A stretch of DNA of 63,481 bases, filler included, from Reclinomonas americana ATCC 50394 (Eukaryota), in the NCBI GenBank assembly GCA_048213135.1. It is 16 parts of 16 records of this genome, joined end to end, with 100 filler letters (N's around TTAATTAATTAA, not from the genome) between each part and the next. Parts side by side here need not be neighbours in the genome. Positions count along the whole stretch, not along the records: positions 17,009 to 39,910 come from AFZH01021536.1; 15 more parts are not named here. The stretch is one strand, 5' to 3'. This document shows, one piece after another, positions 1,256 to 40,025 of this stretch. A program made the position numbers and the translations under genes. The stretch's first letter is position 1; each line of letters starts with the position of its first letter. Under the pieces are notes generated by a model. It worked only from the letters and a program-made list of their open reading frames with translations, was not told the origin of the DNA and did not search any database.

Positions 1256-1478
1256 CGAGGACACCGCCGATCCCGGCAAGCTGGTCGAGTGGTTCATGGT
1301 CTCGTCATGGGCCGAGCATCTGCGCCAGCATCGCCGCGTCTCCAAGGCCGATGCCGACCTGCAAAGCGAAGTCCGGCGCTTCCATGTCGGCGAGGCCGGG
1401 CCGGTGGTGCGCCACTTCCTCCATGTCGATCCGCTGCATCCCCACCCGGTTCCCTCCGGCCGGGAGATGGAATCGTGA
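1256..1478 (+). CDS. C-terminal soluble tail of an MFS transporter (MFS_3/transmembrane secretion effector type), 5' truncated
   Basis: EDTADPGKLVEWFMVSSWAEHLRQHRRVSKADADLQ matches the characteristic ExF.V.SW.EHLRQH.R motif. The TGA at 1476-1478 overlaps the next ATG. Confidence 0.8.
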
Positions 1479-2399
1479 TGCGGCGCCGTTTGATCGCACT
1501 GGCCGGTGCGTGCTGGCTGGCGCAGGCGGGCGTCGCCGCGGCGCAGGCCGACAAGCCTGGCGGCACGCCGGAGAAGGACCTGTTCGACCGCTTCAAGGAC
1601 ATCCCGCTGACGACGGATGGCGCGGTCAGCTTGAGCCTCGGCGGGCAAGTCCGTATCCGCCCCGAGTTCTCGCGCCATCCCGTCTTCGGGCTGGCGGCGC
1701 CCGATCATAATAACGGCCTGCTGATCCGCTCCTTTCTGTCGGCCGACCTCAAGCTCGGCCCCTATCTGCGCGCCTTCGTCGAAATCGTCAGCGGCCAGGC
1801 GCCGATCTGGGCCGGCACGCCGCCGGGAACGCAGCTCGACCGGCTCGACCTGCGGCAGGGCTATGGCGAATTGAACCTGCCGGTTGCTGCCGGCAGCCTG
1901 ATGCTCCGCGGCGGGCGACAGGAGATGAGCTTCGGCTCCTCGCGCCTGATCTCGGTGCGCGACAGCCCGAACGTCCGGCGCGCCTTCGACGGCGTCCGCG
2001 CCGCCTGGGTCGCCTCGCCCGACACCCGCATCGACGCCTTCCTGGTGCGGCCGGTCGTGCCGCTGTCGGGGCTGTTCGACGACAAATCCGATCCCGCCCA
2101 GGTGTTCTGGGGCGTGTACGGGACGAGCCCGGTTCCCGGCATCCCCGGCCTCAAGGCCGATCTCTATTATCTCGGCCTGAACCGCGAGAACGCCCGCTTC
2201 GCGCAAGGCACGGCCGACGAGCATCGCCACACCGTCGGCGCCAGGCTGTTCGGCAAGGCCGGCGGCTTCGACTGGAACCTGGAAGGCGCCTGGCAGTTCG
2301 GCAATTTCGGGCGCGCCGACGTCCAGGCCTGGATGGCCTCGGCCGTGATCGGCTACAGCTTCGCGGACTTGCCCCTCGCGCCGCGCCTCGGCCTCAATG
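1478..2399 (+). CDS. Alginate-export (AlgE-like) outer-membrane beta-barrel family protein, 3' truncated
   Basis: Signal peptide MRRRLIALAGACWLAQAGVAAA. Motifs GRQEMSFGSSRLISVRDSPNVRRAFDG, RHTVGARLFG, DWNLEGAWQFG. Confidence 0.85.
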
Positions 2400-18198: not shown

Positions 18199-21100
18199 TC
18201 ACAGCTCCATGGTGAAGCCACCGAGCTTCTCTCTTAGATCGCGCATCACCATCCTCGCCTCAGCCGCAGTTGGTCTGTCATAGAAAAGCGACATGCATCT
18301 GCACAGATAGCAAGCGAAGTGAGTTGAGAACCAACTCTTCTCTCTCTCTCTCTTCTCCGTCGGACGCAACTGCACCCCCAACCGCAACATCCCACTTGCC
18401 ACATCTGCCGGCCACTCACCCGCAGCAAGATCCGCCTCCTCCGCACCGTCCGCCGACTCGAGTGACCGCTCCCACTGCGCAGCCTGTCCCACCACTGCAC
18501 GTGCCTCGCGACCCGTTAGCAGTTGCAGCAGAATGACTCCGAATGCGTGCAGATCCATGGCTGCACGAATCTCGCCCGAGCGGACGAACAGCGGGTCGAT
18601 GTAGTGCGGGGAGCCAGAGTGTTTGGCGGTGTGGTGGTGGGTCTGTGCGCGGGGAGAGAGGGGGATGAGAAGAGAATGACGAAGAGAGATGCATTCTCTG
18701 TTCGTGAACTCGCTCTCAAGTCACCATCGCCACACATGCGAGAGTGAACAATGCCATTCTGTCTCTTCTCTCCGCGACGAGAATTGTTGTGCAACTCATC
18801 CTCTCAACGTGGAGACAGACGAGTACACATTTACCTTTCTCTCACCAACTGCACAAATCACAGGTGCCGATCAAGGAGACACGGAGAACGAGAGTATTCT
18901 CATGCACCAGAGTTGCGAAGGAAATAAGTGTGGACACAGAATGAGCAAGGTGGTCACTCTGAAGAATACAGAAGAGTGCACATGTACGACAAACATGAAC
19001 GCTCTATCGATCACACCGCAAGCACGTGCTAAGTTTCGATGACAACCATGAAAGAATCCACTCGACACCGAGAATGAGAAGTGGAAAGAAGAAGTGCTCT
19101 TGGCCTTCCAACAAGCAACTGTGCAAGGGGATCGACAGAGCGAGTGCAACGCATTCCAACAAAGAGGAAGAGGAGAATCATCTTCCCGTGCAATCTCCCA
19201 CATGCTGGCACACGCTCACCTCCCCTTCGTCAAAAATACGCGCAATTCCAAAGTCACCGAGTCGCGGCTCACATCGAGTGTCGAGCAAAATGTTGGATGG
19301 TTTGAGATCGCGATGCACAACGCCGTTCTGAGAGGAGAGAGAGTGAGGGTGATTGTGGAAGAGAAGAAGAACATGTGAAAGAGAGGATGATTGTCTCCGA
19401 GAATGCGCGACGACGAGAAAGGAACGACGCACCGAGAGAGTGCCATTCGAGGTCAGATTGTGCGTGAGATGGAGAGAAGAAAAGAAAGATCGCCAACAAA
19501 CACATAGCAAATGATGACATCCACAAGTGAACTGTCGAGAGTGAGAAGCACGACTAGAGAAAGACAAGAAACACAATCCAACGACAGGCAACCCAAGGAA
19601 GTCGAGTCAGCTGACAATAACCAAAGACACAGCCTTATTAACAAAGAAGAGTCTCTAGATGCTCTCGCGAACCACACGCAAACAATGATTACTCTCGCGA
19701 AGCACAGCAGGAAAGGGAGGGAGTTGCCTCACTCACCTGATGCAAGAAGCACATGCCCTCAACAATGCCGAGTCCGATTTGTACGCGCTCCACCACCGTC
19801 AGTGGCTGCATGCCGGCCGCTCGCTTCATGAGTCGCACCTCCAGATCCTGTCCACTGTGTGCGAAGCAAGGGAGGTGAGAAGAAGAAGGGAACGCAGAGA
19901 GAAAAGGAAAGAAGCAAAAGGAGGAGACAACGCGCTTCGGTAAAGAAGAATGACGATCTCTGGAAGGTGCTCATTGTTGTGTATGGAGCAGTGAAGATTC
20001 AGATTATTACAAAGAGTGAGAGAGAGAAAGAGAAACAATGAAGGGAGGTGGAGAGCGAACAGCGGAGAGACAGATATGATGCAAGTAAACGGGAGTGAAC
20101 AGAAGAGAATCAACAAACCAACCGCCTCATCACACTTCCCCACGAACTCACCGCATTGCTCGATATACCAAACATCGCCCTCGCACACCACCGCCCTCCA
20201 CCAGCGTGGAGTAGCCGAGAAGTGGAACAAGTCGACGATGATGCAGTCGTCCAATTGTGTTCAACTGGCGAGAGAAGGAGTGAGACAAGAAACAACCCAA
20301 GCCTGTTTCCGTCTGGTAGCAACAGACCTCGGCATCGTACGACTCCATTGCCGATGGCGCGGCACCATCCAGTCGCTTGACAGCCACCTCGTCCTCGTTC
20401 AGCCAACACAGATACACCTCACCATGACCGCCTTCGCCGGCCTTCAGGTCGTCGGAGAAGGATTCAGTGGCGCGTAGAATGTCGGGCCAGGGGTACTCGC
20501 GTAGGCGATTGGGATCCGCGGCTGCAGATGGGGAAAGAGAGAGAGGTTCAGAGTGACAGTATGCAGAGAAGAGGTGCATCTCTCTCAGTCATACCTTGGA
20601 GGGTGGCCAGCTCGCGGCGCAAACGACTGTTTTCATGCGTGAAATCGACTCGCTCACTGGCAAACAGTTGCGCCTGCTGTTCCAGCTCACGCTGCAGCTG
20701 CGAGACACGTTGTTCCGCAGTGACGAGAGCCTGTTGGAGTTCCTCGTGCTGCCGCTCATGTTCCCGCAGCTGCTGCTCTCGCTCACAGCGGTATGCTTCG
20801 TATTCACGCTGAAGATGAGAAATGATGGCGTCCTTGTCGGCTAGCTGGCGCGCCACCGTGGCGGCGTCCAGTGCCTGCCCAGAAGCAGGGAGGTCAGAAA
20901 GAGTAGAGAGAAAAAGAGCGAGAAGAAACCACCACAGACGGTGCGCGAATGGACTGATATAGGAAGGAATTCGCAGATTCTTACCTGCCGCTGTGGCGAA
21001 GCTGCTGACGAGCAGATTTGATGATGGGACGGAGTAGGAACACAAAGTCACGAAGTGCAGGTCAGCATTCGCAACGGAGAGACAACCGCACACGTCAGAG

Positions 21101-21828
21101 AAAGACCTGGAGGTGGAGGAGATCGCGGCTGCTGTTGTTGTTGTTGTCGTTGACGTGGTGGTGCTGGTTGTGCAGCGAGGTGGTCCAGCAACTCGGCTAC
21201 TTGCTGGTGGTCGTAGTCGCGTGCCACTTGAGCCGCCGACTTGCCCTTCTTGTTGACCATGGGAACGAGGTCGGGGAAGCGAGTGGCGAGGAGTCGCACA
21301 ATGGCTTCGTGCCCTAAAGCAGCAGCGAAATGCAGTGCAGTGGACTGTGGATTCTTGTGACGATCATTGGTACCCGCCCGCACCATCTCCAGCGGACATC
21401 GTCGCTCATCGGCCAGCAGCCACTCCACCACTTGCAGACGCCCAAAGTTGGCAGCGATCATCAGCGGTGTCGTGCCGTAGTCGGTGACCATCTGTGCGAG
21501 TTCCGGACCGACACCACTCTCCTCCCACAAATACTCCAACACGGAGAGATGGCATTGTTGAGCGGCACAGAAAAATGCCGAGGCGCCATTCTCATTCATC
21601 TCCTCTCTCTTCAGCAGAGTGTGTTCGCCGTCAAGCGCCACCAACTCGCGCAGTGCCTTCACATTGCCATTCCACGCCATCTGCCATGCTCTCAGCCTGC
21701 GGAGCACAACAAGCAGAGAGTGAGTGTGCATTTCAGAGATCGATCTGACAATAATACAAACATCACACATACACACACCTCCGAGCGCCACCACTCCCCC
21801 CCACAGCTCCCCTGCGCGCCGCGCTCAT
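18199..21828 (-). CDS. Ankyrin repeat-coiled coil-IRAK/Pelle/RLK-family Ser/Thr kinase, copy 1 (10 exons, 614 aa)
   Basis: Exons 21828-21779, 21696-21107 (ANK), 21004-20985, 20874-20595 (coiled coil), 20521-20328, 20264-20152, 19854-19737, 19327-19220, 18642-18371, 18298-18199. All GT-AG, total 1845 nt in frame. Motifs [16 protein letters not shown] (Tyr gatekeeper), [37 protein letters not shown]. Confidence 0.9.
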
Positions 21829-21894
21829 CCTCCCCAACAACGACAGGAACAAAGTCGTGACAGAAGTCCCGCAAGTTCGTTCACTTCGTCGTTT

Positions 21895-22020
21895 CCACTT
21901 TACTTCCCTCGCTCACTCGCGACTCGACAAACGCACACAGCCATCGAACTTCACGTATGCGACAGAGTAAACACCCGCACAAACAGAACTCAACAAAGTC
22001 GACGTTCATCACGACGTCGC
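21895..22020 (-). promoter_or_regulatory. Conserved upstream (putative promoter/5'UTR) block of the array genes
   Basis: The block ctcgctcactcgc...cacagcc.tcgaacttcacg...gtcgacgttcatcacg lies upstream of copies 1, 2 (~26040-26150), 3 (~30190-30300) and 5 (~39540-39645), but not copy 4. Confidence 0.5.
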
Positions 22021-22312
22021 CATTCCGTAAGTTCAAGCTTAAGTACCTTTCGCCGACCGACGTATGAGGTTCCTTATCGCACACCTTCATTATCGTACTC
22101 AGCATTCTCCTGCTCTCATATCGAGCGACAAGATGCCTCGAGGGCTGGGCACTGAAATCTCGCTCGGAGTCGCCCAGCGGGCTGCATGGTGACTGTCCGC
22201 AGTCAATATCGACAGTCTCCAGTCACCTCCCAACAGCGCAGGCGACAGATATGGCCACAAGCGTCGGAGGGCACCTGGATTGTAATGCACCTTCTTCTCC
22301 CTTGTTGTCTCT

Positions 22313-25300
22313 TCACAGCTCCATGGTGAAGCCACCAAGCTTCTCTCGCAGATCACGCATCACCATCCTCGCCTCCACCGCAGTTGGTCTGTCATAGAAC
22401 AGCGACATGCATCTGCACAGAGAGCAAGCGAAGTGAGTGGTGATTCAGCTTTCTCTTTCTCTCTCTCCTCCTCGCACGCAACTGCACTCCCAACCGAAGC
22501 ATCCCACACGCCACATCCGCTGGCCACTCACCCGCACTGAGGTCCGCCTCCTCGGCACCGTCCACCGATCCCAGAGACCGCTCCCACTGCGCAGCCTGCC
22601 CCACCAGAGTGCGCGCCTCGCGACCCGTCAGCAGCTGCAGCAAGATGACGCCGAAGGCGTGCAGATCCATGGCTGCACGAATCTCGCCCGAGCGGAAGAA
22701 GAGTGGATCGGTGTAGTACGAGGAGCCGGCGTGCTTGCAAGTGTGGTGGTGGGTCTGTGCGCGGGGAGAGAGGGGGATGAGAAGAGAATGACGAAGAGAG
22801 ATGCATTCTCTGTTCGTGAACTCATGCTCTCGCCGTGCTCTCAAGACATCATCGCCACACATGAGAGTGCACAACGACAATCTTTCCATTCTCTTGGCGA
22901 CGAGAAAAACGATGTGCAACTCATCCTCTCAACGTGGAGACAGACGAACACGCATAGTCTGTCTCACAAGCACTGCAGAGTCCAAGGTGCACGATCAAGA
23001 AGACGTGGAGAACGGGAGTAGTTCTCATGCACCAGGGTTGTGAGACACAGAACAGGAATGGAGAAGTGTGCACAGGCAACAAACACGAATGCTGCATCGA
23101 TCTCGCTGCTGACCGCTGCTGTGTCCATCTCTTCGATGACAGAAGCGAAAGAACCCACTCGACAGAGTGAGAAGTGAGAAAACGAGCTCTGGGTCTCCAA
23201 CAAGCAGCCCGATTCGAGGATAGATAAAACGAGTGCAACGCACACCAACTACAAAGAAGTAGAGAAGTATCTTCCTGCTATTCTCCATCTGAAGACACAC
23301 ACTCACCTCCCCTTCATCGAAAATGCGCGCAATTCCAAAGTCACCGAGGCGTGGCTCACATCGATTGTCGAGCAGAATGTTGGATGGTTTGAGATCGCGA
23401 TGCACAACGCCGTTCTGAGGGGAGAGAGGTGAGAGGGTGATGAAAGCCGGGAAGAACAAGATTTGGAAGGATAGGGCGATGGTCACCGAGAATGCGTGAT
23501 GACGGGAAAGGAACGACGGGCCGAGAAAGTATCGACAAATGGCAGATTGTTGGCGAGCTGGAAGAGAAGCAGGGATGAACGCCAACACCAACAGCGAGCA
23601 CCACATAACAAATGAGGGCATCTACAAGTGAACTGTTTCGAGAGTGAGAAGCACGACTAGAGAAAAGACAGGAACCACAATCCAACGACTGACAACCCAT
23701 TGAAGACGAGTGCCCGCCCACTCTCCGCTGACAACAACCAAAGACACAGCCTAATGAACAAAGAAGAGCCTCACGATGCTCCCACGAACCAAAGACACAA
23801 ACAAAGATTGCTCTCGCCAAGCGAGAGAGTCGCCTCACTCACCTGATGCAAGAAGCACATGCCCTCGACAATGCCGAGTCCGATTTGCACACGCTCCACC
23901 ACCGTCAGTGGCTGCATGCCGGCCGCTCGCTTCATGAGTCGCACCTCCAAATCTTGTCCACTGTGTGCGAAGCAAGGGAGGTGAGAGGAAGAAGGGAATG
24001 CAGAGAGAAATGGAAAGAAGCAAAGGAGGAGACAATGCGCTTCGTTGAAGAAGAATGACGATCTCTGGAAGGTGCTCATTGTTGTGTATGGAGCAGTGAA
24101 GATTCAGATTATTACAAGGAGTGTGAGAGAGAGAGAGAAAGAGAAACAATGAGGGGAGGTGGAGAGTGAAATGGAGAGACAGATATGATGCAAGTAAACG
24201 GGAGTGAACAGAAGAGAATCATCAATCCAACCGTCTCGTCACACTTCTCCCCACCACCTCACCGCATGGCTCGATACACTAGACATCGCCCTCGCACACC
24301 ACCACCCTCCACCAGCGTGGAGTATCCCAGCAGCGGAACAACGCGTCGATGATGCAGTCGTCCAATTGTGTTCAACTGGCATGAGGAGAAGTGAGCAACT
24401 GGCATGAGGGGAAGTGAGCAACAGGTTGATCCCATCTCCTTCTGCCTCAACGGACCTCGACATCGTACGACTCCATTGCCGACGGCGCGGCGCCATCCAG
24501 TCGCTTGACAGCCACCTCTTCCTCGTTCAGCCAACAAAGATACACCTCACCATGACCGCCCTCACCGGCTTTCAGGTCGTTGGAGAAGGATTCGGTGGCA
24601 CGTAGAATGTCGGACCAGGGGTATTCGCGCAGGCGATTGGGATCCGCGGCTGCACATGGAGAAAGGAGATAGAGAGGTTCAGAGTGACGGTACGCAGAGA
24701 AGTGGTGCATCGCTCTCACACGCACCTTGGAGAGCGGCCAGCTCGCGGCGCAAGCGACTGTTTTCATGGGTGAGATCGACCCGCTCACTGGCAAAGAGTT
24801 GCGCCTGCTGTTCCAGTTCACGCTGCAGCTGTGCGACACGCTGCTCCAATACGGCATTGGTTTGTCGAAGTTCCTCGTGCTGCCGCTCAGCTTGTCGCTC
24901 ATACTCCCGCAGCTGCTGGTCCCGCTCACAGCGGCATGCGTCGTATTCACGCTGAAGATGAGAAATGATGACGTCCTTGTCGGCGAGCTGACGGGCCACC
25001 GCGGCGGCATCCAGTGCCTGCCCAAAAGCAGGGAGGTCGGCAAGAGTAGAGTGAAAGAGAGCGACAAAACTTGCATTGGAGACGGTGCGCGAGTGTACAG
25101 ATATGGGAAGGAATGCGCAGATCCTTACCTGCCGCTGCGGCGAAGCTGCTGCTAGTGCGGCAGCACGATTCGGGCAGACAAAGGCATGAAACGCTGGTCA
25201 GGAAAAAGAGATGAACACGGAACTCGATGGAGCGAGATACCTGCAGGTGGAGATCGCTGTTGTTGTTGTTGTTTTTGACGTGGTGATGCTGGCTGTGCAG

Positions 25301-25952
25301 CGAGGCGATCGAGCAACTCGGCCACTTGCTTGTGACCATTCTCGCGTGCCCACTGAGCCGCCGTCTTGCCTGCCTTGTTGACCGTGGGAATGAGGTCGGG
25401 AAAGCGCGTGGCGAGGAGTCGCACAATGGTTTCATGACCCCAATTGGCAGCAAAATGCAGAGCAGTGGACTGTGAACTCCAGTGACGGTCATTGGTGACC
25501 GCCCGCACCATCTCCGGCGGGCATCGTCGCTCATCGGCCAGCAGCCACTCCACCACGTGCAGATATCCATTGAATGAAGCAACCATCAGTGGCGTCCAGT
25601 CATAATCGTCAACCACCAGTGCGAGTTCCGGACCGACACCACTCTCCTCCCACAAATACTCCAACACAGAGAGATGGCCTTCTTGAGCGGCACAGTAAAA
25701 TGCCGAGCCGCCACTCTTATGCATCTCCTCTCTGTTCAGCAGAATGTGTGCGCCGTCACGCGCCACCAACTCGCGCAGTGACTTCACGTCGCAATTCAAC
25801 GCCATATCACATGCTTTCGGCCTGCGAATCACAACAGGCAAAGAGAGTGGGTATTTCAGAGTTCGACCTGACAACAGCACACATGCACACACACACACAC
25901 ACCTCGCAACACCACCACTGTCCCCCACAGTTCCACTCTGCGCCGCACTCAT
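22313..25952 (-). CDS. ANK-coiled coil-IRAK/Pelle-like kinase, copy 2
   Basis: Same 10-exon layout. ANK exon 25821-25241, coiled-coil exon 25017-24726. Kinase motifs intact, no in-frame stops seen. Confidence 0.88.
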
Positions 25953-26462
25953 TCTCTCCAACAACGACAGGCTGTCGAGACGGACGGAGATGAAGTGTCC
26001 TGCAATGTTTCGTTCCAACTTCGTCGTTTTCCTCTTTACTTCCCTCGCTCACTCGCGACTCGACTAACGCACACAGCCATCGAACTTCACGCGCGTGACA
26101 GAGTACACACATGTGCAAACAGAACTCAACAGAGTCGACGTTCATCACGACGTCGCTCCGTCGTTCTCTAATTCAATGAGTACCGTGAGTTCAAGCGTAA
26201 GTACCCTCCGCCGACCGACCTATGAGGTTCCTTGTCGCACACCTTCATTATCGTGCTCAGCATTCTCCTGCTCTCATATCGAACTCGATGGCTGGCCACT
26301 GAAATCTCGCTCAGAGTCGCCCAGCGGGCTGTATGGTGACTGGCCGCATTCAATATCGACAGTCCTCCAGTCACCTGCCAACGGCGCAGGCGACAGCTGT
26401 GGCCGCAAGCGTCGGGAGGGAAACCTGGATTGTAATGCACCTTCCGCTCCCTTCTTGTCTCT

Positions 26463-29400
26463 TCACAGCTCCATGGTGAAGCCACCCAGCCTTTCTCGCA
26501 GATCGCGCATCACCATCCTCGCCTCCGCCGCAGTTGGTCTGTCGAAGTACAGTGACATGCATCTGCACGAGAGCAAGCGAAGTGAGTGGCGAGTCTTCTC
26601 TCCATCCCTCTTCTCCTCCTCGCACGCAACTGCACTCCTAACCGAAGCATCCCACTCGCTACATTCGCCAGCCACTCGCCCGCACTGAGGTCCGCCTCTT
26701 CTGCACCGTCCACCGATTCCAGTGACCGCTCCCACCGCGCAGCCTGTCCCACCACTGCACGTGCCTCGCGACCCGTTAGCAGTTGCAGCAGAATGACTCC
26801 GAATGCGTGCAGATCCATGGCTGCACGAATCTCGCCCGAGCGGACGAACAGCGGGTCGATGTAGTACGAGGAGCCGGCGTGTTTGGCGGTGTGGTGGTGG
26901 GTCTGTGCGCGGGGAGAGAGGGGGATGAGAAGAGAATGACGAAGAGAGATGTATTCTCTGCTCGTGAACTCGCTCTCAAGTCACCATCGCCACACATGCG
27001 AGAGTGAACAATGCCATTCTGTCTCTTCTCTCCGCGACGAGAATTGTTGTGCAACTCACCCTCTCAACGGGGAGACAGACGAGTACACGTTTACCTTTCT
27101 CTCACCCACTGCACAAATCACAGGGTCTACCATCCAGGAGACACGGAGTATGAGAGTAGTTCTCATGCACCAGAGTTGTGAAAAAAAGTGAGCGGACGCA
27201 GATGAGCAAGGTGATCACGCTGAGGAATGGAGAACGAGTGCACATGTACAACAAACATGAACGCTCCATTGATCGCGCTGCAAGCACCTGCTAAGTCTCG
27301 ATGACAGAAACGAAAGAACCCACTTGACTGAGTGAGAGTGAGCAGTGGAAAGAAGACGTGCTCTGGGTCTCCAACACGAAACTATGCAAGGGGATCGGTA
27401 GAACGAGTGAAATGCACACCAACAACAAAGAGGAAGAAGAGAAGCATCTTCCTGTGCCACTGTCCATCTGCCGAGGCGCACACTCACCTCCCCCTCATCG
27501 AAAATACGCGCAATGCCAAAGTCTCCAAGACGTGGCTCACATCGATTGTCAAGCAGAATGTTAGATGGTTTCAGATCGCGATGCACGACGCCGTTCTGAG
27601 AGGAGAGAGAGAAAAAGTAAGTGTGATGGTTGAAGAGAAGAAGAAGGCATTTGGAAGGAGAGGGCGATGGTCTCCGAGAATCCATGACGACGGAAAAGGA
27701 ACGACGGGTCGAGAAAGTATCGACAAAAATGGCAGATTGTGGGAGAGGTGGAAAAGAAGACAGCGGTGCATGTACATAGCAAATGATGGTATCCACAAGT
27801 GAACTGTCGAGAGTGAGAAGAACGACGAGAGAAAAGACAGGAAACACAATCCAACGGCAGGTAACCCAAGGAAGACGAGTGCCCGCCCACTCTCCGCGGA
27901 CAACAGCCAAGGACACAGCCTTATGAACAAAGAAGATGCTCTCATCAACCAAAGACACATACAAAGATTACTCTCGCCAACAGGGAAACTGCCGCCTCAC
28001 TCACTTGATGCAAGAAGCACATGCCCTCAACAATTCCGAGACCGATTTGCACACGCTCCACCACTGTCAGAGGCTGCATGCCGGTCGCTCGCTTCATGAG
28101 TCGTACTTCCAGATCCTGTCCACTGTGTGCGAAGCAAGGGTGGTGAGAGGAAGAATGGAATGCGCAGGGTGGAGAAAGAGAAAAGGAAAGAAGCAAAAGG
28201 AGGAGACAATGCGCTTGGTTGAAGAAGAATGACGATCTGTGGAAGGTGCTCATTGTGTATGGACCAGTGAAGATTCTATTAATTCTAGGAGAGAGAGAGA
28301 GAGAACGAGAAACAATGAGAGGAGGTGGAGAGTGAAAAGGAGAGACAGATAAGATGCAAGTAAACGGGAGTGAACCGAAGAGAATCAACAAACCAACCGC
28401 CTCGTCACACTTTCCCCCACCAACTCACCGCATTGCTCGATATACCAAACATCGCCCTCGCACACCACCACCCTCCACCAGCGTGGAGTAGCCGAGAAGT
28501 GGAACAAGTCGACGATGATGTAGTCGTCCAATCGTGTTCAACTGGCATGAGGAGAAGTGAGCAACAGCTTAATCCCATTCCCTCCTGCTTTAACAGACCT
28601 CGGCATCGTACGACTCCATCGCCGATGGCGCGGCACCATCCAGCCGCTTGACAGCCACCTCTTCCTCGCTCAGCCAGCACATATACACCTCACCATGACC
28701 TCCTTCGCCAGCCTTCAAGTCGTCGGAGAAGGATTCAGTGGCGCGTAGAATGTCAGGCCAGGGGTACTCGCGCAGGCGATTGGGATCGGCGGCTGCAGAT
28801 GGGGAAAGGAGAAAGAAAGGTTTAGAGTGATGTTTCGAAGAGCAGAAATGCGTCTCTCTCACGCGCACCTTGGAGAGTGGCCAGCTCCCGTCGCAAGCGG
28901 CTGACTTCATGGGTGAAATCGACTCGCTCACTGGCGAAGACATGCGCCTGTTGTTCCAGCTGTGCGACACGCTGCTCCAATACGGTATTGGTATGTCGAA
29001 GTTCCTCGTGCTGCCGCTCATGTTCCAGTTGCTGCTGCTCTCGCTCGTTTCGGTATGCGTCGTATTCACGCTGCAGATGAGCGACACGCTGCTCGTGCTC
29101 TCGTCGCTGCTGCTCAGCTTGTCGCTCATACTCCCGCTGCTGCTGTTGTTCTCGCTCCTGTCGACATGCATCGTATTCGCGCTGCAGACTGGCAATGGTG
29201 GAGTCCTTGTCGGCGAGCTGACGCGCCATCGCAGCAATGTCGTCCATGGCCTGCAAGAAAACGCACGCAAGAGAGTGAGAGAAGAGTGAATCGAAGGCTG
29301 TCAGGTGGAGGGCGACTCACCCGCTGCTGCTGTGCGACTGAGGAACAATCAAAAGGAAACGTCATCAAGCGATGGAACAAAAAACGCAGTCGCCAAAGAA

Positions 29401-30110
29401 AGGGCATACCTTGCTGATGAGGTGGCGGCGCTGATTGTGCAGTGAGGCGGTCGAGCAACTCGGCCACTTGTTGATGACCGTAGCGGCGTGCCCTCTGAGC
29501 CGCCGTCTTGCCCTCACAGTCGACCATGGGAATAAGGTCGGGATAGCGAGTGGCAAGGAGGCAAACAATGGCTTTGTGGCCCCAGGCGGCAGCAATATGC
29601 AGTGCAGTGGACTGTGAATTGTCATCACAATCATAGGTGACTGCCCGCACCACCTCCGGCGGGCATCGTCGCTCATCAGCCAGCAACCACTTTACCACTT
29701 GCAGATGGCCTTTGATGGCAGCAACCATCAGTGGCGTCATGCCATAGTCGGTGACCAACTGTGCGAGTTCCGGACCGACACCACTCTCCTCCCACAAGAA
29801 CTCCAACACAGAGAGATGGCCTTTTTGAGTGGCACAGTAAAATGCCGAGCAGCCACGCTCATGCATCTCCTCTCTCTTCAGCAGAGTGTGTGCGCCCTCA
29901 AGCGCCACCAACTCGCGAAGTGCCTTCACATTGCCCTCCCTTCCCATCTCCCAAGCTTTCTTCCTGTGAAACAAAACAAGCAGAGTGAGTGAGTTTGCAC
30001 CGAGATCGATCTGACAACATCACACAAAGCACACATTCACACACACACACACACACACACCTCGCAACATCACCACTGCCCCCCACAGCTCCCCTGCGCG
30101 CCGCGCTCAT
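26463..30110 (-). CDS. ANK-coiled coil-IRAK/Pelle-like kinase, copy 3
   Basis: Same layout. ANK exon 29963-29410, 17-nt micro-exon, coiled-coil exon 29250-28869 with an internal duplication. Kinase motifs intact. Confidence 0.88.
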
Positions 30111-30608
30111 TCTCCCCAACAACGACAGGAACGAAGTCGTGACAGAAGATGTGTCCTGCAACGTTTCATTCCAACTTCGTCTTTACTTCCCTCGCTCACT
30201 CGCGACTCCACTAACGCACACAGCCATAGAACTTCACGCGCGTGACAGGGCAAATACACGTGCAAACAGAACTCAACAAAGTCGACGTTCATCACGACGT
30301 TGCTCTGTCGTTCTCTATAATTCAATGAGTACCGTAAGTTCAAGCTAAAATGCCCTTCGCCGACCGACGTATGAGATTCCTTATCGCACACCTTCATTAT
30401 CGTACTCGGCATTCTCCTGCTCTCATATCGAGCGACGACGTTGCCTCGAGGGCTGGGCACTGAAATCTCGCTCGGAGTCGCCCAGCGGGCTGCACGATGA
30501 CCCGCAGTCAATATTGACAGCCCTCCAATCACCTGCCAACGGCGCAGGCGACAGCTGTGGCCACAAGCGTCGGAGGGCACCTGCACCTTCCACTCCCTTC
30601 TTGTCTCA

Positions 30609-33600
30609 TCACAGCTCCATGGTGAATCCACCCAGCCTTTCTCTTAGATCGCGCATCACCATCCTCGCCTCCGCCGCAGTTGGTCTGTCATAGAACAGTG
30701 ACATGCAGCTGCACAGAGAGCAAGCGAAGTGAGTGGTGAGCCAACTCTTCCCTCCTCTCCATTGCACGCAACTGCACTCCTAACCGAAGCATCCCACTCG
30801 CTACATCCGACGGCCACTCACCCGCAGCAAGATCCGCTTCCTCCTCACCGTCCACCGACTCGAGTGACCGCTCCCACCGCGCAGCCTGTCCCACCACCGC
30901 ACGTGCGTCGCGACCGGTCAGCAGCTGCAGCAGAATGACACCAAAGGCGTGCAGATCCATGGCTGCACGAATCTCGCCCGAGCGGAAGAAGAGCGGATCG
31001 GTGTAGTACGAGGAGCCGGCGTGCTTGGCGGTGTGGTGGTGGGTCTGTGTGCGGGGGGATGAGAAGAGAATGATGAAGAGAGATATTCTCTGCTCGTGAA
31101 CTCATGCTCTCGCCGTGCTCTCAAGACAAATCTCCACACATTGCAGAATAATGACACCTGTCTATTCTCTTCGCGACGAGAAAAACGATGTACAACCCAT
31201 CCTCTCAACGGGGAGACAGACGAACACGCATAGTCTGTCTCACAAGCACTGCAGAGCCCAAGGTGCACGATCAAGGAGACGTGGAGAACGGGAGTAGTTC
31301 TCATGCACTAGAGTTGTGAGACGCAGAACACGAATGGAGAAGTGTGCACATACAACAAACATGAACGCTCCATCGATCGCGCTGCAAGCACCTGCTAAGT
31401 TTCGATGACAGCCATGAAAGAATCCACTCGACAACGAGAGTGAGAAGTGGAAAGAAGACGAGCTCTGGGTCTCCAACAAACAACTGCACAAGGGGATCTG
31501 TAGAACGAGTGTATCGCAACAAGACAGAAGAAGAGAACCCTCATGTTGTGCAATCATCCATTTGCTGACACACGCCACCTCCCCTTCGTCAAAAATACGC
31601 GCAATGCCAAAGTCACCGAGACGCGGCTCGCATCGATTGTCAAGCAGAATGTTGGATGGTTTGAGATCACGATGCACAACGCCATTCTGAGAGGAGAGAA
31701 AGTGAGGGTTACGGTGGAAGGAAACATTTGGAAGGAGAGGGCGATGGTCTCCGAGAATTCATGATGACGGGAAGGAACAGCCATCCGAGGGAAGGTTGTG
31801 GGAGAGGTGGAAGAGAAGAAAACAAATATCGCCAACAAACGTACTGAGTAAACGTCCCACATGTTGGAAGCCACGAGAAAACTGTCGAGAAAGAGAAGCA
31901 TGACTAAAGAAAAGACAGGAAACACAATCCAACGACAGACAGCTTAGTGAAGACGAGTGCTTGGCCAGTCTCGGCTGACAATAACCAAAGACACAGCCTG
32001 TATCAACAAGAAGAGTCTCACGATGCTCTCACGAACCAACAACACAAACACAGATTGCTCTCGCCTATATGAGAGGTTGCGCAGGGAGTCTGCCACCTCA
32101 CTCACCTGATGCAAGAAACTCATGCCCTCAACAATGCCGAGACCGATTTGCACACGCTCCACCACCGTCAGTGGCTGCATGCCGGCCGCTCGCTTCATGA
32201 GTCGCACCTCCAGATCCTGTCCACTATGTGCGAAGCGAGTGAGTGAGGAAGAAGGGCATGCGGAGAGAGGAGAAGGAGAAAAGGAAAGAAGCAAAAGGAG
32301 GAGACAATGTGCTTTGTTGACGAAGAGTGGCGACCTCTGGTAGACGCTCATTGTTGCTTATGAATCAGTGACGATTCAGATTATTACAAGGAGTGAGAGA
32401 GAGAGAGAAAGAGAAACAATGAAGGGAGGTGGAGAGCAAACAGCGGGAGAGACAGATATGATGCAAGTAAACGGGAGTGAACAGAAGAGAATCAACAAAC
32501 CAACCGCCTCGTCACACTTCCTGCACGAACTCACCGCATGGCTCGATATACCAGGCACCAACCTCGTACGGCATCGCCCTCCACCAGCGTGGAATAACCC
32601 AGCAGCGGAACAAGTCGGCGATGATGCAGTCGTCCAATCGTGTTCAACTGGGGAGAGAGCGAAGTGAGCAACAGCTTAATCCCATCTCCTCCTGCCTCAA
32701 CAGACCTCGGCATCATAGGACTCCATGGCCGAGGGCGCAGCACCATCCAGTCGCTTGACAGCCACATCTTCCTCGTTCAGCCAGCACAAGTACACCTCAC
32801 CATGACCGCCTTCGCCGGCTTTCAGGTCGTCGGAGAAGGATTCGGTGGCGTGTAGAATGTCGGACCAGGGGTATTCGCGCAGGCGATTGGGATCTGCGGC
32901 TGCAGATGGGGAAAGGAGAAAGAGAGGTTCAGAGCGACTGTAGGCACAGAAGAGGCGGATCTATCAGTCGAACCTTGGAAATTGGCTAGCTCGCGGCGCC
33001 GGCGACCGACCTCATGGGTGAGATCGACCCGCTCACTGGCGAAGACATGCGCCTGTTGTTCCAGATGTGCGACACGCTGCTCCAATACGGCATTGGTTTG
33101 TCGAAGTTCCTCGTGCTGCCGCTCAAGTTCCCGCTGCTGCTGCTCTCGCTCATGGCGGTATGCATCGAATTCACGCTGAAGATGGGATATGATGGCGTCC
33201 TTGTCGGCGAGCTGACGGGCCACCGCGGCGGCATCCAGTGCCTGCCCAGAAGCAGGGAGGTCGGCAAGAGTAGAGAGAAAGAGAGCGACAAGAAACCACC
33301 AGAGATGGTACGCGAATGGATAGACATGGGAAGGAATGCGCAGCTCTTCACCTGTCGTTGTATGGATGCTGCTGCAAGTGCGGCAGCACGATTCGGGCAG
33401 ACAAAGGCACGAAACGCTGGTCAGGAAAAAGAGACAAGCACAGAAAATATAAATGGAGCCAGATACCTGCTGGTGGCGATCGCTGTTGTTGTTGTTTTTG
33501 ACGTGGTGGTGCTGGTTGTGCAGCAAGGCGGTCGAGCAACTCGGCCACTTGAAGGTGACCCCGTTGGCGTGCCCATTGAGCCGCCGTCCTGCCCGCCTTG

Positions 33601-34163
33601 TTCACCGCGGGAATGAGGTCGGGAATGCGAGTGGCGAGGAGTTGCACAACATCTTCGCGGCCCCAGGCGGCTGCGAAATGCAGAGCAGTGGACTGCGGAC
33701 TTTTGGAGCGATCATTGGTGACGGCCCGCACCATCTCCGGCGGGCGTCGTCGGTCATCGGCCAGCAACCACTCCACCACTTGCAGATGGCCTTTGAAGGC
33801 AGCGATCATCAGTGGCGTCATGCCAGTATCGGTGACCGCCAGTGCGAGTTCTGGACCGACGCCACTCTCCTCCCACAAATACTCCAACACAGAGAGATGA
33901 CCTTCGCGAGCGACACAGTAAAATGCCGAGGCGCCCTCAACCATCTCCTCTCTCTTCAGCAGAGTGCGTGCGCCCTCACGTGCCACCAACTCGCGCAGTG
34001 CCTCCACATCGCCGTCAAATGCCATATCACATGCTTTCTGCCTGCAAAACACAACCAGCGAAGAGAGTGCGTTTGCACATAGATCGATCTGACTGCAAAA
34101 CACAGATCACAGGCACGCGCACCTCTTTCCTCCACCGTTGCCTCTGTTCTGCGCAGCACTCAT
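30609..34163 (-). CDS. ANK-coiled coil-IRAK/Pelle-like kinase, copy 4
   Basis: Same layout. Starts [16 protein letters not shown] exon 34041-33467, coiled-coil exon 33241-32974. Kinase motifs intact. Confidence 0.88.
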
Positions 34164-34847
34164 TCTTCACACACTCACAAGGGTGATCACAAGGGCGGGA
34201 GTTGGCGGACGGAGTGGCGACACGGAGAAGAAGCGTCCTGCAGGTTATTCCGATGTCGACATTTCTCAGCACTCAAAGTCGGGGTCTCGCTTCACCACAG
34301 AGCTGTAGTGCTCGTGAATGTTCACAGCGGCTGCCTCAGACGTGCAGGGTGCCAATTCCAAAGGCAGTTCGTGTGCCGACGTCGACATTGTGTTCGACGT
34401 CGAGGCTGGTTTCGTCTGTCTTTTTTGCCTGCTGTAACCACCCGTGGTATAATCTGCATGGTCCAACCAACTCGGCGGTACCCTGGGAGCATCGCCTCGT
34501 CGACGGCCACTTGGGAGAAGAGTCATTGTCGGCAAGGGACTTATCGACATTTGTCGCAATATTGCAATGAAGTGAAAGAAGCGTTTTGTTTTGCAGACGT
34601 ACGGCTCAGACATCTACTCGATCGGGCGCAAAGGTGTCGAGCGCCTAGCCGAGGTTGCATCTCTCTCACGTCTTCCCGCAGAATAACAAGAATACGCATG
34701 TGGCACCTCGACAACGGTGCTCTCGCGTCGAAGCTAAATTCACACTTCCATCCGCTTCCTTCCGCAGATGAGTTCCTGGCGCGTCAGCCACAGGTACGCA
34801 TTGCGTACACTGACTCCACACACAAAAAAGCCACTTGCTCTCCATCC

Positions 34848-37800
34848 TCACAACTCAATGGTGAACCCACCCAGTTTCTCTCGCAGATCACGCATCACCG
34901 TTCTTGCTTCAACCGCAGTTGGTCGATCGTAGAACAGCGACATGCATCTATGAGGCAAAGTGAGCGGCGAGCCCACTCTTCGAAGCCTCCCTTTCCCTCT
35001 TCGTCTCCTTCGCACGCAACTGTACCCCCAACCGCAGTATCCCACTCGCCACATCCGCCGGCCACTGACCTGCGGCACGATCGGCCTCGGCCGCAGCGTC
35101 CACGGTGTCGAGTGATCGCTCCCATCGCGCCGCCTGTCCCACCAGCGTGCGTGCCTCGCGACCCGTCAGCAGCTGGAGCAAGATGACGCCGAATGCGTGG
35201 AGATCCATGGAGGAGCGAATGTCACCCGAGCGCACGAAGAGTGGGTCAATGTAGTGCGGGGAACCGGAGTGGGTGGCGGTGTGGTGGTGGGTCTGCGCAA
35301 AATGGTGAAGAGAGTGGGGTCAACAAAGGGACGGAGAGAAGGATGACGGAACTCAAGTGGAGGTCATGTTCTCAGAGTGCGACGAAGGCCTCAGAAGTGC
35401 AGGGAGACTGAATGCTTCACGAGAGTTTGGACAGGGAAATCTGCCATTCTCTCTGCTTCTTCATCATAGATAGCTGAGAAGATCCGGTCTCTCTGAGGTG
35501 CACACACAATATTCTGACCAGTGCGGGGGAATGTCAGGCTGGGAGTACTTTAAGATGCTGCAGCGCGCACGTTGCAGGAAATGTGATAGCAGGAGTGCAA
35601 AGTGTCGTGTCCTGAGGGAACTGTTGTGATCAACAAAGCAGTGACGGCCTCTCTCAAGGATCCCAACACAGATGCAGGCAGTTCTTCAAGCAGGCGAACA
35701 GAGAATAAGAAGGAAAAGCCAAAAAAACGGTTGCATCAGCGAGTTGCAACTGCAATAGCGTTGAACGCCTCTCAACGAACGAGAATTGAGTGCACACAAA
35801 CAGCAGGAAGGAGCAGTCAACACACTGCTTCGCCAGAGATCGATGCACGAACCAAGCCTCCCTCAATGAAGAAGAGAGAGCAGCACGCAAACAACAGGCA
35901 TATTACGTCTCTAGCTTTTCCTCCCCTGATGGAAGCATCTGTTGTGTGCCTACGAGCAAACACGCGCATTCACCACAAAGAGAGAGAGAGCGTCTCCAAT
36001 GTGCAACTCAGTGTGGGAAGAGACGAGGCTCAACAAAGAAATGGATGAGACACACATCCATGTGCATTGGAATCCCGTGCAGCATGGAGACCGAGAGAGC
36101 AGTTGGGAAAGAAGTGCTCCGAATCGTCAACAAGCACCGCAGCTCACAGATCGATAGAACGAGTGCAGTGCACTCCAACAAAGAAGCGGAGACACATCTC
36201 AATGTCCTTCGCAAATCATAGAGGCCGAGAGAACAGTGAGAATCATCGAGACACAAACATGCAACTCAGCTCTGGTATCGATAGATCGAGTGCAATGCAC
36301 TCAGACAAAGTAGGAGAAGAGATGCATCTGCCTGTGGTACGAAAACCATCAAGACTGAGAGAGTAGTGAGAAGCAGACATGTATCGAGTAACAAACATGC
36401 AACTCAGCTCGGGGATCTGGAGAATGAGTGCATTGGATTCAACAACGAAGAAGAGGAGACGCATCCCCATGTGCTAGAGACCGAGAGAGTAGCGAGGAGC
36501 AGGCACGCATCGAGACACAAACGTGCACCTCAGCTCGGGAATCGACAGAACGAGTGCATTGCACTCCACCAATCGAAGACGAAGAGAACCAGCTCCATGT
36601 GCTACGAAACTTCGTACAGCATAAATACACCGAGAGAAAAGTGAGAAGCAAACAACAGAGCGAGTGCAACGCACGCCAACAACGAAGAAGAGGAGAAACA
36701 TCTTCCTGCAATTCTCCATCTGAGGACACACGCTCACCTCCCCCTCATCAAAAATGCGTGCAATGCCAAAGTCTCCGAGGCGTGGCTCGCATCGGTTGTC
36801 GAGCAGAATGTTGGATGGTTTGAGATCGCGGTGCACGACGCCGTTCTGAGAGTGGAGAGAGAGTGAGGGTGACGAAGGACGGGCAGGTGAACATTTGGAG
36901 AGAGAGGGCGATGGTATCCGAGAATGCATGACACACCAAAGAATTCGTCATCTGAGAGAAGATTGTAAGAGAGGTGGAAGAGAAGAAAAGAAAGATCGTC
37001 AGCTTGAACAGTGAGCACCACATCACGAATGATGGCATCCACAAGTGAACTGTCGAGAGTTAGAAGCACGACTAGAGAAAAGACAGGAAACACAGTCCAA
37101 CGACAGACAGCTTAGTGAAGACGAGTCAGCTGACAATAACCAAAGACACAGCCTTATTAACAAAGAAGAGTCTCTAGATGCTCTCGCAAACCACACACAA
37201 ACAATGATTACTCTCGCGAAGCAGAGCAGGAAAGGGAGACTGCCGCCTCACTCACCTGATGCAAGAAGCACATGCCCTCGACAATGCCGAGTCCGATTTG
37301 TACGCGCTCCACCACTGTCAGAGGCTGCATGCCGGTCGCTCGCTTCATGAGTCGCACCTCCAGATCTTGTCCACTGTGTGCGAAGCACAGGAAGGTGAGA
37401 TGAAGAAAGCAATGCGCAGGGTGGAGAAAGAGAAAGGAAAGAAGCAAAGGAGGAGACAATGCGCTTGGTTGAAGAAGAATGACGATCTCTGGAAGGTGCT
37501 CATTGTGTATGGACCAGTGAAGACTCAGATTATTATTTCAAGGAGAGGGAGAGAGAGAAAGAAACAAGGAGGGGAGGTGGAGAGTGAATAGCGGAGAGAC
37601 AGATATAATGCAAGTAAACGCGAGAAGAGAATCAACAAACCAACCGCCTCGTCACACTTCCCCCCACCAACTCACCGCATGGCTCGATACACCAGGCACC
37701 AACCTCGCACCGCGTCACCCTCCACCAATGTGGAGTAACCAAGCAGTGGAACAAGTCGGCGGTGATGCAGTCGTCCAATGGTGTTCAACTGGAGAGAAGG

Positions 37801-39432
37801 GAGTGAGACAAGAAATACCACAAGCCCATCTCCTTCCGCCATCTCACACCTCGGCATCATACGACTCCATGGCCCACGGTGCGGCATGATCCAGTCGCTT
37901 CACAGCCACATCTTCCTCGTTCAGCCAACACAGAAACACGTCACCTTGGCCGCCTTCACCGGCTTTAAGATCGTCGGAAAAGGAGTTGGTGGCGCGGAGA
38001 ATGTCAGGCCAGGGGTATTCGCGAAGGCGATTGGGGTCCGCGGCTGCAGATGGGGAAAGAGAGGTTCAGAGTGACGGTACGCAGAGAAGAGATGCATCTC
38101 TCTCACTCGCACCTTGGAGTGTGGCCAGCTTGCGGCGCAGGCGATCGACTTCGAGGCGCAAGCGCTCATTTTCACGCGTCTGATCGGCAGACCGCTGTCG
38201 CTCATCATCGAGTGATTGAGATTGCTGGTCCAGTTCGCGTCGTAGCTGAGTGACGCGCTGCTCGGAAGTGGCGTGAGCTTGCTGTAATTCCGTGTTTGAT
38301 TGCTGTAGTTGACCCACTATGTCTTCGTGCTCTCGTCGCTGTTGCTCAGCTTGTCGCTCGTGCTCCCGCTGCTGCTGCTCCCGCTCCAGACGGTATGCAT
38401 CGTGCTCGCGCTGCAGTTGGGCGATGAGCGCATCCTTGTCGGCGAGCTGGCGGGACATTGCGGCGTCCTCGGCCTGCAGGGGAACAAGGAAGTCGAAAAA
38501 GGGTGCGAGAGATCGATAGTGAGGGCAAAACATGAGACAGTGCGCGAATGGACTGATACGGGAAGGAATGCGCAGATTCTCACCTGTTGCTGTGGAGATG
38601 CTGCTGCTGCTGGCACAGGGGCGGCTTCATGATTCGAGAGGACGAGAAATACACAAAGTCAAGATTCGCAGGTCAGGGACTGAGACAACAACAAAGGTCG
38701 CAGAAAAGACGGAAGGGAGATACCTGGAGGCGGAGACCGCGGCTGCTGTTGTTGTTGTCGGGGTGGTGGTGCTGGCTGCGCAGCGAGGCGTTCGAGCAAC
38801 TCGGCGATTTGTTGATGGCCCTGTTGGCGTGCCCATTGAGCCGCCGTCTTGCCCTCCTTGTTGACCATGGGAACGAGGTCGAGAAAGCGAGTGGCGATGA
38901 GTCGCACAATGGCTTCGTGTCCTTGAGCGGCAGCGGCGTGCAGAGCAGTGGACTGTGGCTCGCTGTGACGATCATTGGTGCCCGCCCGCACCATCTCCGG
39001 CTGACATCGTCGCTCATCGGCCAACAACCACTCGACCACTTGCAGATGTCCCTTGTAGGCAGCAATCATCAGTGGTGTCATGCCATAGTCGTTGACCAAC
39101 TGTGCGAGTTCCGGACCGACACCACTCTCCTCCCACAAATACTCCAACACAGAGAGATGGCCTTGGAAGGCGGCACGGTAAAATGCCGATGCACCCTCAT
39201 GCATCTCCTCTCTCTTCAGCAGAGTGCGCGCACCCTCACGCGCCACCAGCTCGCGCAGTGCCTTCACATCGCCATTCAACGCCATCTGCCATGCTCTCAG
39301 CCTGCAAAACACAACAACAAGCAAAGAGAGTGAGTGCGCTCCAATGACCGACCAGACAACAAACAACTGAATCACAAACCTCTTTCCTCCGCCATCACTG
39401 CCCGCCACAGCTCCACTCTGTGCAGCACCCAT
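34848..39432 (-). CDS. ANK-coiled coil-IRAK/Pelle-like kinase, copy 5 (most divergent kinase)
   Basis: Same layout. Starts MGAAQS, ANK exon 39301-38724, coiled-coil exon 38473-38113, G-loop GEGGQGDVF, enlarged intron 36737-35293. Confidence 0.88.
36140..36715. repeat. Diverged ~125-bp tandem repeat (about 5 copies) in the post-DFG intron of copy 5
   Basis: Recurring gatagaacgagtgca.tgcactc...aagaggaga.acatc and acaaacatgcaactcagctc. The first of these motifs occurs once in the same intron of copies 1-4. Confidence 0.75.
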
Positions 39433-39910: not shown

Positions 39911-40025
39911 NNNNNNNNNNNNNNNNNNNNNNNNNNNNNNNNNNNNNNNNNNNNTTAATTAATTAANNNNNNNNNNNNNNNNNNNNNNNNNNNNNNNNNN
40001 NNNNNNNNNNCTCTCTCTTCTTCCT

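Follow-up and report, generated by a model that had tools for sequence, protein, structure and literature searches.

Differences among five tandem ankyrin-kinase paralogs of Reclinomonas americana concentrate on the concave face of the ankyrin domain

Results

A stretch of DNA from Reclinomonas americana ATCC 50394 (assembly GCA_048213135.1), analysed here as a window of 63,481 nucleotides (16 parts of 16 records, joined end to end with 100 filler letters between parts), carries a tandem array of five genes, u1 to u5, whose predicted proteins each combine an ankyrin (ANK) domain, a coiled coil and a protein kinase. Comparison of the five copies revealed that the variable surface of the ankyrin domain is the canonical concave binding face: residues vary in 28 of 35 concave columns of the alignment, as against 17/45 convex, 17/43 basal and 12/44 core columns, and three or more different residues occur in 17/35, 4/45, 3/43 and 0/44 columns of the same classes, respectively. 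Amino-acid differences between pairs of copies average 0.51 for the concave class, 0.19 for the convex, 0.21 for the basal and 0.12 for the core, and the concave face differs from the other exposed surfaces at p=2.7e-7. The variation is thus concentrated on the binding groove and not scattered over the whole surface, as the original prediction, made from the DNA alone, had proposed. Surface classes were taken from Table 1 of Utges et al. (PMC8415598) and shifted by +2 to the numbering of designed ankyrin repeat proteins (DARPins), the size of the shift being inferred from the TPLH motif.

The assignment of residues to surfaces rests on a repeat register that was fixed independently of the variation, by HMMER alignment of the u4 ankyrin exon (exon 2, or E2) to DARPin chains, after which residues were labelled by canonical position. 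In this register the pairs of residues that precede a conserved glycine (pre-Gly pairs) fall at positions 13 and 14, which close the inner helix. Positions 1–5 correspond to the hairpin strings. Pfam recognised the domain in the open reading frame (ORF) of u2 E2 both as Ank_2 (E=9e-21; 74.7 bits against a cut-off of 27.3) and as Ank (61.2 bits against a cut-off of 21.1). An AlphaFold2 model of the u4 E2 product (pLDDT 88.8, pTM 0.83) contains five inner/outer helix pairs and supports the fold, and its best Foldseek matches in the PDB are five-repeat N3C DARPins (TM 0.86–0.88, target-normalised; root-mean-square deviation about 2 Å; about 30% identity).

Within the domain, the mean pairwise difference is highest at positions 13 and 14 (0.76), followed by a four-residue hairpin insertion in repeat 4 (0.70), position 10 (0.64), position 3 (0.55) and position 5 (0.45). 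Almost every copy is different at the hairpin tips, at inner-helix position 10 and, most of all, at positions 13/14. The pre-Gly pairs on which the original prediction was built (WN/LN/RE/FD/LN, QQ/QE/QK/RE/FQ, NF/FN/IK/FK/YK, AL/NW/AW/AW/AQ and DY/EN/RY/QR/QQ) are all present in the five copies, as are its three sets of hairpins (NEN/HKS/HER/VE-/HE-, TDYGT/DDYDW/TDYGM/TDTGM/NDYGM and NDRHKNP/NDRHWSS/YDCDDNS/NDRSKSP/NDRHSEP). Its equation of the variable sites with the positions randomised in DARPins holds as an enrichment: at the designed-library positions 2, 3, 5, 13, 14 and 33, 19 of 26 columns vary, compared with 55 of 141 others (Fisher p=0.002), and 13/26 columns carry three or more residues, compared with 11/141 (p=1.3e-6). 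The correspondence is incomplete, with position 33 invariant in 4/4 repeats, position 2 invariant in repeats 3 and 4, and position 10 and the repeat-4 insertion highly variable in addition. Likewise, the claim of a nearly invariant scaffold is right for the stretch HLSVLE(Y/F) together with the 19 letters that follow it and for QSTALH, both invariant, but does not extend to the whole framework, because 55 of its 141 columns vary.

The same distribution appeared in a sequence that had played no part in defining it. Among 5.8 billion proteins the only close relative of the five ankyrin domains is P0060, a 154-amino-acid EukProt entry derived from an expressed sequence tag (EST) of Reclinomonas americana, which shares 69–74% identity with every one of the five ANK exons and which, judged by its sequence, is a sixth paralog of the family, from the same organism or one closely related to it. 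In 14 of 30 concave or hairpin columns P0060 has a residue that none of the five copies carries, compared with 8 of 102 others (p=5.6e-6). Its origin as an EST also shows that the family is transcribed. More distant relatives are generic: a narrow ANK search returned two proteins at E<=1e-10, with P0060 alone among them belonging to the family; the 59 proteins found in a wider search with the ANK ORF of u5 were without exception generic ankyrin proteins, none more than 39% identical; a profile search of 1.84 billion representatives was dominated by very long multi-ANK proteins, with P0060 the sole single-stretch match within the best 150; and an ESM Atlas search with the ankyrin domain gave generic ANK clusters only.

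We compared rates of codon change in the five coding sequences with our own GY94-F3x4 likelihood code, and not with PAML or HyPhy; the best of the 15 topologies for the ANK exon is star-like. The ratio of non-synonymous to synonymous change (omega), as estimated by NG86, is 0.10 for the kinase, 0.28 for the coiled coil and 0.52 for the ANK exon, the last reaching 0.65 under model M0. When surfaces of the ankyrin domain share one synonymous rate, omega is 2.0 for the concave face, 0.37 for the convex face, 0.39 for the basal face and 0.21 for the core. The kinase, the ankyrin core and the convex and basal faces are under purifying selection, and because the two exposed faces other than the concave one are conserved, plain tolerance of surface positions does not predict the pattern.

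Random-sites models of the ANK exon gave a likelihood-ratio statistic (2dlnL) of 19.7 for M1a/M2a, 21.8 for M7/M8 and 19.6 for M8a/M8, with omega about 3 for 19–23% of codons and the highest posteriors at positions 13/14 of repeats 1, 2, 3 and 5 and in the repeat-4 insert. Over five topologies the M1a/M2a statistic was stable, ranging from 17.5 to 22.4 on the four others; in the control regions the same comparison gave 0 for the kinase and 3.3 for the coiled coil, both despite mosaic ancestry. With fixed partitions and a shared synonymous rate, omega was 1.93 for the class of designed positions (p=8e-4) and 4.7 for positions 13/14 (p=4e-10). Because synonymous divergence differs 2.5-fold between repeats, we also gave each repeat a rate of its own. 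The concave class then had an omega of 1.96 (p=8e-5) and positions 13/14 one of 4.9 (p=6e-10), while the value was 1.4 at the remaining concave positions and 0.34 outside the concave class. Measured against the local rate of the 2 or 3 codons that flank them on either side, positions 13/14 have an omega of 2.5 (p=0.003 and 0.001, respectively), and in a parametric bootstrap of the corresponding null none of 55 replicates reached the observed statistic of 8.9 (maximum 6.2; 4/55 above 3.84). At the nucleotide level, the p-distance of 0.50 at these codons is greater than every intron mean (0.12–0.46). By these measures, the pre-Gly pairs appear to evolve more quickly than the silent sites around them.

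An alternative explanation of these rates is neutral drift, in which the concave positions are simply the least constrained of any ankyrin repeat and evolve with omega about 1, the scaffold and kinase being under purifying selection; several results speak for it and against diversifying selection. A selection-free M1a+gamma model (lnL -1754.1) fits best of the random-sites models, ahead of M2a (lnL -1757.5), and a class with omega>1 added to it gains a 2dlnL of only 0.89 (p=0.64). Simulation under the M1a+gamma null produced M1a/M2a statistics above 5.99 in 20 of 22 runs, 6 of which reached 19.7 or more; the plain M1a null itself gave values above 5.99 in 3 of 23 simulations (maximum 8.3), making the test somewhat liberal. 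In view of these simulations the standard test cannot separate selection from heterogeneity of site rates in the ANK data. The M7/M8 test proposed with the original prediction comes out positive for the ANK exon; like the M1a/M2a test, whose significance a null with rate variation reproduces, it is not diagnostic here.

The synonymous rate matters in the same way. In fixed-partition models the class synonymous rate is 2–3 times higher when freed, and with a rate of its own no class is significant: the strict set has an omega of 0.98, which becomes 1.09 when the inserts are included, and positions 13/14 have one of 1.61. The local synonymous multiplier near the variable codons is about 2. Codons that differ for the same amino acid have a frequency of 0.26 in the class and 0.175 elsewhere (p=0.11), and the value is somewhat raised 1–2 codons away as well. 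Compared with flanks of one codon on each side, positions 13/14 have an omega of 1.73 (p=0.11), and the full designed set compared with local flanks gives 1.2–1.56 (p=0.47 to 0.04), the values of 1.2–1.4 being non-significant. All of this comes from five coding sequences and from codon models in our own code. Furthermore, the concave positions are reported in PMC8415598 to be the most divergent over 7,407 ankyrin repeats. Drift nevertheless leaves unexplained the conservation of the exposed convex and basal faces, the omega of 2.5–4.9 at positions 13/14 against local or per-repeat rates with its bootstrap, and a divergence at these codons greater than that of any intron; we hold it to be possible, with some doubt.

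Together, these results make diversifying selection plausible for the pre-Gly pairs, on the strength of only five sequences, and leave it unproven for the hairpins. The original prediction had proposed such selection for both; it gains support at positions 13/14, which exceed the neutral expectation set by codons 2–3 positions away, but not at the other concave positions, which are indistinguishable from neutral.

Silent divergence is itself uneven along the ANK exon, by about 2.5-fold: same-amino-acid codon differences are 0.10–0.13 in repeats 1–2 and 0.24–0.25 in repeats 3–4 (in u4, 34040-33840 and 33830-33610, respectively), and one stretch encoding 11 residues is unusually conserved in its DNA. 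Either gene conversion or a constraint on DNA or RNA could be responsible.

Gene conversion also offers an explanation of the concave excess as an artefact of mosaic ancestry, whereby conversion would recently have homogenised most of the ANK exon and the variable codons would be older remnants whose excess reflects age. The units are indeed mosaics: sliding windows reveal pairs that are 4–8% diverged in one stretch and 25–50% in the next, with the divergences switching between pairs. Adjacent sites with identical splits of the five copies number 12 in the coiled coil (5.0 expected) and 24 in the kinase (7.3 expected), counts that 0 of 5000 permutations reached in either region. Synonymous divergence (dS) is lower in the ANK exon (0.30) than in the kinase (0.46), and the two-fold synonymous rate near variable codons fits an age difference too. 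Inside the ANK exon, however, splits are not clustered (4 observed, 4.45 expected, P=0.67), all ten possible splits being interleaved, so that no tract structure is apparent. Moreover, variable codons turn up at the same positions in one repeat after another, with conserved codons 1–3 residues away, a pattern that conversion tracts alone, without selection, cannot produce; the concave omega persists under per-repeat rates; and the artefact would still require selection against homogenising the binding residues. We regard this explanation as improbable.

A third explanation, that some of the five genes are redundant duplicates in decay and that the ANK variation represents degeneration toward pseudogenes, draws on the raised overall omega of the ANK exon and nothing else. 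An intact ten-exon ORF of 598–634 amino acids with conserved GT-AG splice sites is present in 5/5 copies, and because all five are intact we rejected the pseudogene reading. The low omega of the kinase, in which the catalytic motifs are all kept, the low omega of the ankyrin core and the representation of a related paralog by an EST are equally at odds with decay, to which we give next to no credence.

The five genes lie head to tail on the minus strand in units of about 4 kb, roughly 18.2–39.6 kb in the window, as delimited by self-comparison (Table 1). Unit-to-unit DNA identity is 76–82%, in exons and introns alike. The DNA of the window is eukaryotic in character, with a GC content of about 50–57% and GT-AG introns, and a tblastn search of the window found no further copies of the u2 protein outside 18100-39700. 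We used u2 as the reference model, reading its junctions in three frames; its spliced coding sequence is in frame with no internal stop. Its exon boundaries were carried over to u1 and u3–u5 by aligning the units with MAFFT. The E3 mini-exon and the E9 donor are predicted from frame and conservation only. The span given in the original prediction, 21107..39301, begins and ends exactly at E2 boundaries of u1 and u5. E1 encodes a short N-terminus, E2 the ankyrin domain, E3 is a mini-exon of 17–20 nucleotides, E4 encodes the coiled coil and E5–E10 the protein kinase. An unspliced 3' end for E9/E10 was considered and set aside: the frame with DRPTA.EAR.VMRDLRE.LGGFT.EL is kept in 5/5 copies, as is the GT after the ...CG donor.

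Table 1. Positions in the window of the five genes and of their ankyrin and HRD-DFG exons
Feature	Position	Strand	Remarks
Gene u1	18199..21828	-	610 aa, ATG to stop, 10 exons; intact ORF, GT-AG
u1 exons E1-E5	E1 21828-21779, E2 21696-21107, E3 21004-20985, E4 20874-20595, E5 20521-20328	-	
u1 exons E6-E10	E6 20264-20152, E7 19854-19737, E8 19327-19220, E9 18642-18383, E10 18298-18199	-	
Gene u2	22313..25952	-	611 aa, reference model
u2 exons E1-E5	E1 25952-25903, E2 25821-25241, E3 25148-25129, E4 25017-24726, E5 24649-24456	-	
u2 exons E6-E10	E6 24375-24263, E7 23960-23843, E8 23414-23307, E9 22754-22495, E10 22412-22313	-	
Gene u3	26463..30110	-	631 aa; E2 29963-29410; E4 29250-28869
Gene u4	30609..34163	-	598 aa; E2 34041-33467
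Gene u5	34848..39432	-	634 aa; E1 39432-39380; E2 39301-38724; E4 38473-38113
ANK exon (E2) u1	21107..21696	-	five ankyrin repeats
ANK exon (E2) u2	25241..25821	-	Pfam match
ANK exon (E2) u3	29410..29963	-	
ANK exon (E2) u4	33467..34041	-	numbering reference, Q1...; position 15 of repeats 1-5 is G10, G47, G84, G127 and G161, respectively
ANK exon (E2) u5	38724..39301	-	
HRD-DFG exon (E8)	u2 23307..23414; u1 19327-19220; u3 27595-27488; u4 31686-31579; u5 36845-36738	-	

The kinase is far more uniform than the ankyrin domain, with 91% identity between copies. The motifs GxGxxG, VAxK, HRD and DFG are visible in 5/5 spliced translations, and Pfam recognised Pkinase in the E8 ORF of u2 (E=4e-10; 39.9 bits against a cut-off of 31.7). 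The HRD-DFG exon, described in the original prediction as almost identical in protein sequence, is invariant in 35 of its 36 columns. Compared with solved structures by sequence, E5 and E9 have their best matches in SYMRK, PBL2, LYK3, CERK1, BRI1, BIK1, FERONIA and IRAK1; these matches to the RLK/Pelle group and IRAK1 are weak (E 3e-6 to 1e-2) and concern single exons, and on that footing the kinase would be a Ser/Thr kinase of RLK/Pelle/IRAK-like type. A wider, word-based protein search with E9 found no match at E<=1e-5.

The coiled coil probably mediates oligomerisation. Its exon, E4, varies in length from 268 to 382 nucleotides across copies; that of u3 contains a 37-residue internal duplication of the motif LQREYDA.R.EREQQ, and that of u5 has other insertions. 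No transmembrane segment was evident by eye in the spliced translations. The predicted protein starts with MGAAQS in u5 alone and with MSAA.. in u1–u4; we take the former to be an N-myristoylation-like start, and since u5 is the only copy with a start of this MG type, it may be membrane-anchored and the other four not. The E8-E9 intron of u5 also holds about 1.4 kb of DNA that the other four units lack (35300-36660), and Tandem Repeats Finder detected no tandem repeat in the extra DNA.

Elsewhere in the window, an intronless ORF at 1256-2398 (+) lies in a stretch of about 65% GC, compared with 50–57% and introns in the remainder, and matches Pfam Alginate_exp (PF13372, E=1.3e-49), a family of bacterial outer-membrane type; its appearance suggests a chimeric scaffold, contamination or gene transfer. 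An exon of another gene at 11949-12734 (+) carries WD40 repeats (Pfam WD40, E=2e-32). LRR-like ORFs were seen by eye at about 3916-5223 and 7919-8614 (-), with no Pfam match in the scanned parts, 3916-4620 and 7919-8614. Paired runs of 44 N, separated by 12 bases, are found at 15 places (for example 1156-1199 with 1212-1255, and 39911-39954 with 39967-40010; 1320 N in total) as masked or gap stretches, none of them inside the five genes.

Discussion

We somewhat favour the view that the copies have undergone selected diversification of ligand specificity. On this model, the five intact, expressed-type tandem paralogs would encode a cytoplasmic kinase that acts as a sensor or adaptor; each protein has a short N-terminus, a five-repeat ankyrin domain of N3C DARPin size, a coiled coil whose length differs between copies and a kinase of RLK/Pelle/IRAK-like type. 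The concave face would be the putative ligand-binding surface, and the copies may have been selected to bind different partners with a common kinase output. Duplication and gene conversion have shaped the array, the codons of the binding face remaining distinct. If the concave differences do set specificity, then the array would be a compact example from nature of one kinase re-aimed at several partners through about a dozen surface residues, the same principle as that used in the engineering of DARPins. It would also bring to the jakobids, in which signalling and self/non-self recognition are almost unstudied, a kinase of IRAK/RLK-like type that bears a variable recognition domain.

A broader possibility, which we think rather unlikely, is that the array forms part of the recognition repertoire of an early-branching bacterivorous eukaryote. 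Its products would then be intracellular receptor-kinases in which ANK, as the variable module, is joined through the coiled coil to an IRAK/Pelle/RLK-type kinase, the scaffold being renewed by duplication and conversion and positions 13/14 and the hairpins being diversified by an arms race with prey, parasites or viruses. Kinases of the IRAK/Pelle/RLK family are used by plants and animals for innate immune signalling. Were this reading true, the array would be the ankyrin-based equivalent, in jakobids, of the LRR receptor kinases of plants and the ANK-NLRs of fungi. A literature search on the Reclinomonas nuclear genome returned organelle-centred papers only.

A methodological lesson follows from the codon tests. 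Those proposed with the original prediction give a convincing and yet non-diagnostic signal of 'positive selection', because heterogeneity of synonymous and site rates in a tandem family suffices to produce it.

Ankyrin repeats and a kinase of the tyrosine kinase-like (TKL) group occur in one polypeptide in ILK, TNNI3K, RIPK4/ANKK1 and the plant ILK-type Raf-like kinases. We know of no tandem array with a variable binding face described among such ANK-kinase fusions, and neither the E9 kinase search (E<=1e-5) nor the ANK searches (generic matches of 39% or less, apart from the EST) yielded a specific sequence relationship to them. With the RLK/Pelle-IRAK kinases the array shares kinase motifs, and these kinases are its best, though weak, sequence matches among solved structures (E 1e-4 to 3e-6, single exons), but its N-terminal module is ANK plus coiled coil and not an extracellular LRR or LysM region or a death domain.

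With DARPins and the ANK-N5C library the array shares the fold and size of its domain, which consists of N-cap-like, three internal and C-cap-like repeats, and its most variable natural positions, 13, 14, 10, 3 and 5, are ones randomised in designed libraries. The original DARPin set, that of Binz et al. in 2003, is reportedly 2, 3, 5, 13, 14 and 33. ANK-N5C randomises 2, 3, 5, 10, 13 and 33 (PMC4308713). PMC8683736 mentions randomised DARPin positions without giving numbers, and a literature search for a paper that lists them explicitly yielded none. The array differs in being a natural family with only six known members, not a library, whose ankyrin domain is joined to a coiled coil and a kinase; it differs further in its invariant position 33, its position 2 fixed in two repeats, its variable four-residue insert in repeat 4 and the number of framework columns that vary.

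A parallel in logic is found in fungal NLR-like (STAND) proteins, in which a conserved scaffold with a variable binding face is likewise attached to a signalling domain. According to PMC4986451, the positively selected and polymorphic sites of fungal NLR-like ANK repeats lie on the concave surface and the repeats undergo concerted evolution; in ankyrin repeats at large, concave positions show the greatest divergence and the strongest enrichment in protein contacts (PMC8415598). In the fungal proteins, variation lies among the near-identical repeats of one gene and among alleles, repeat number is polymorphic and the partner is a NOD/NACHT ATPase, whereas the Reclinomonas array varies between tandem paralogous genes with a fixed five repeats and a kinase partner. 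Since diversification of the concave ANK face has already been described for fungal NLRs, the array belongs to a known type of pattern; the new element is its setting, a tandem family of ANK, coiled coil and RLK/IRAK-like kinase in a jakobid-like protist.

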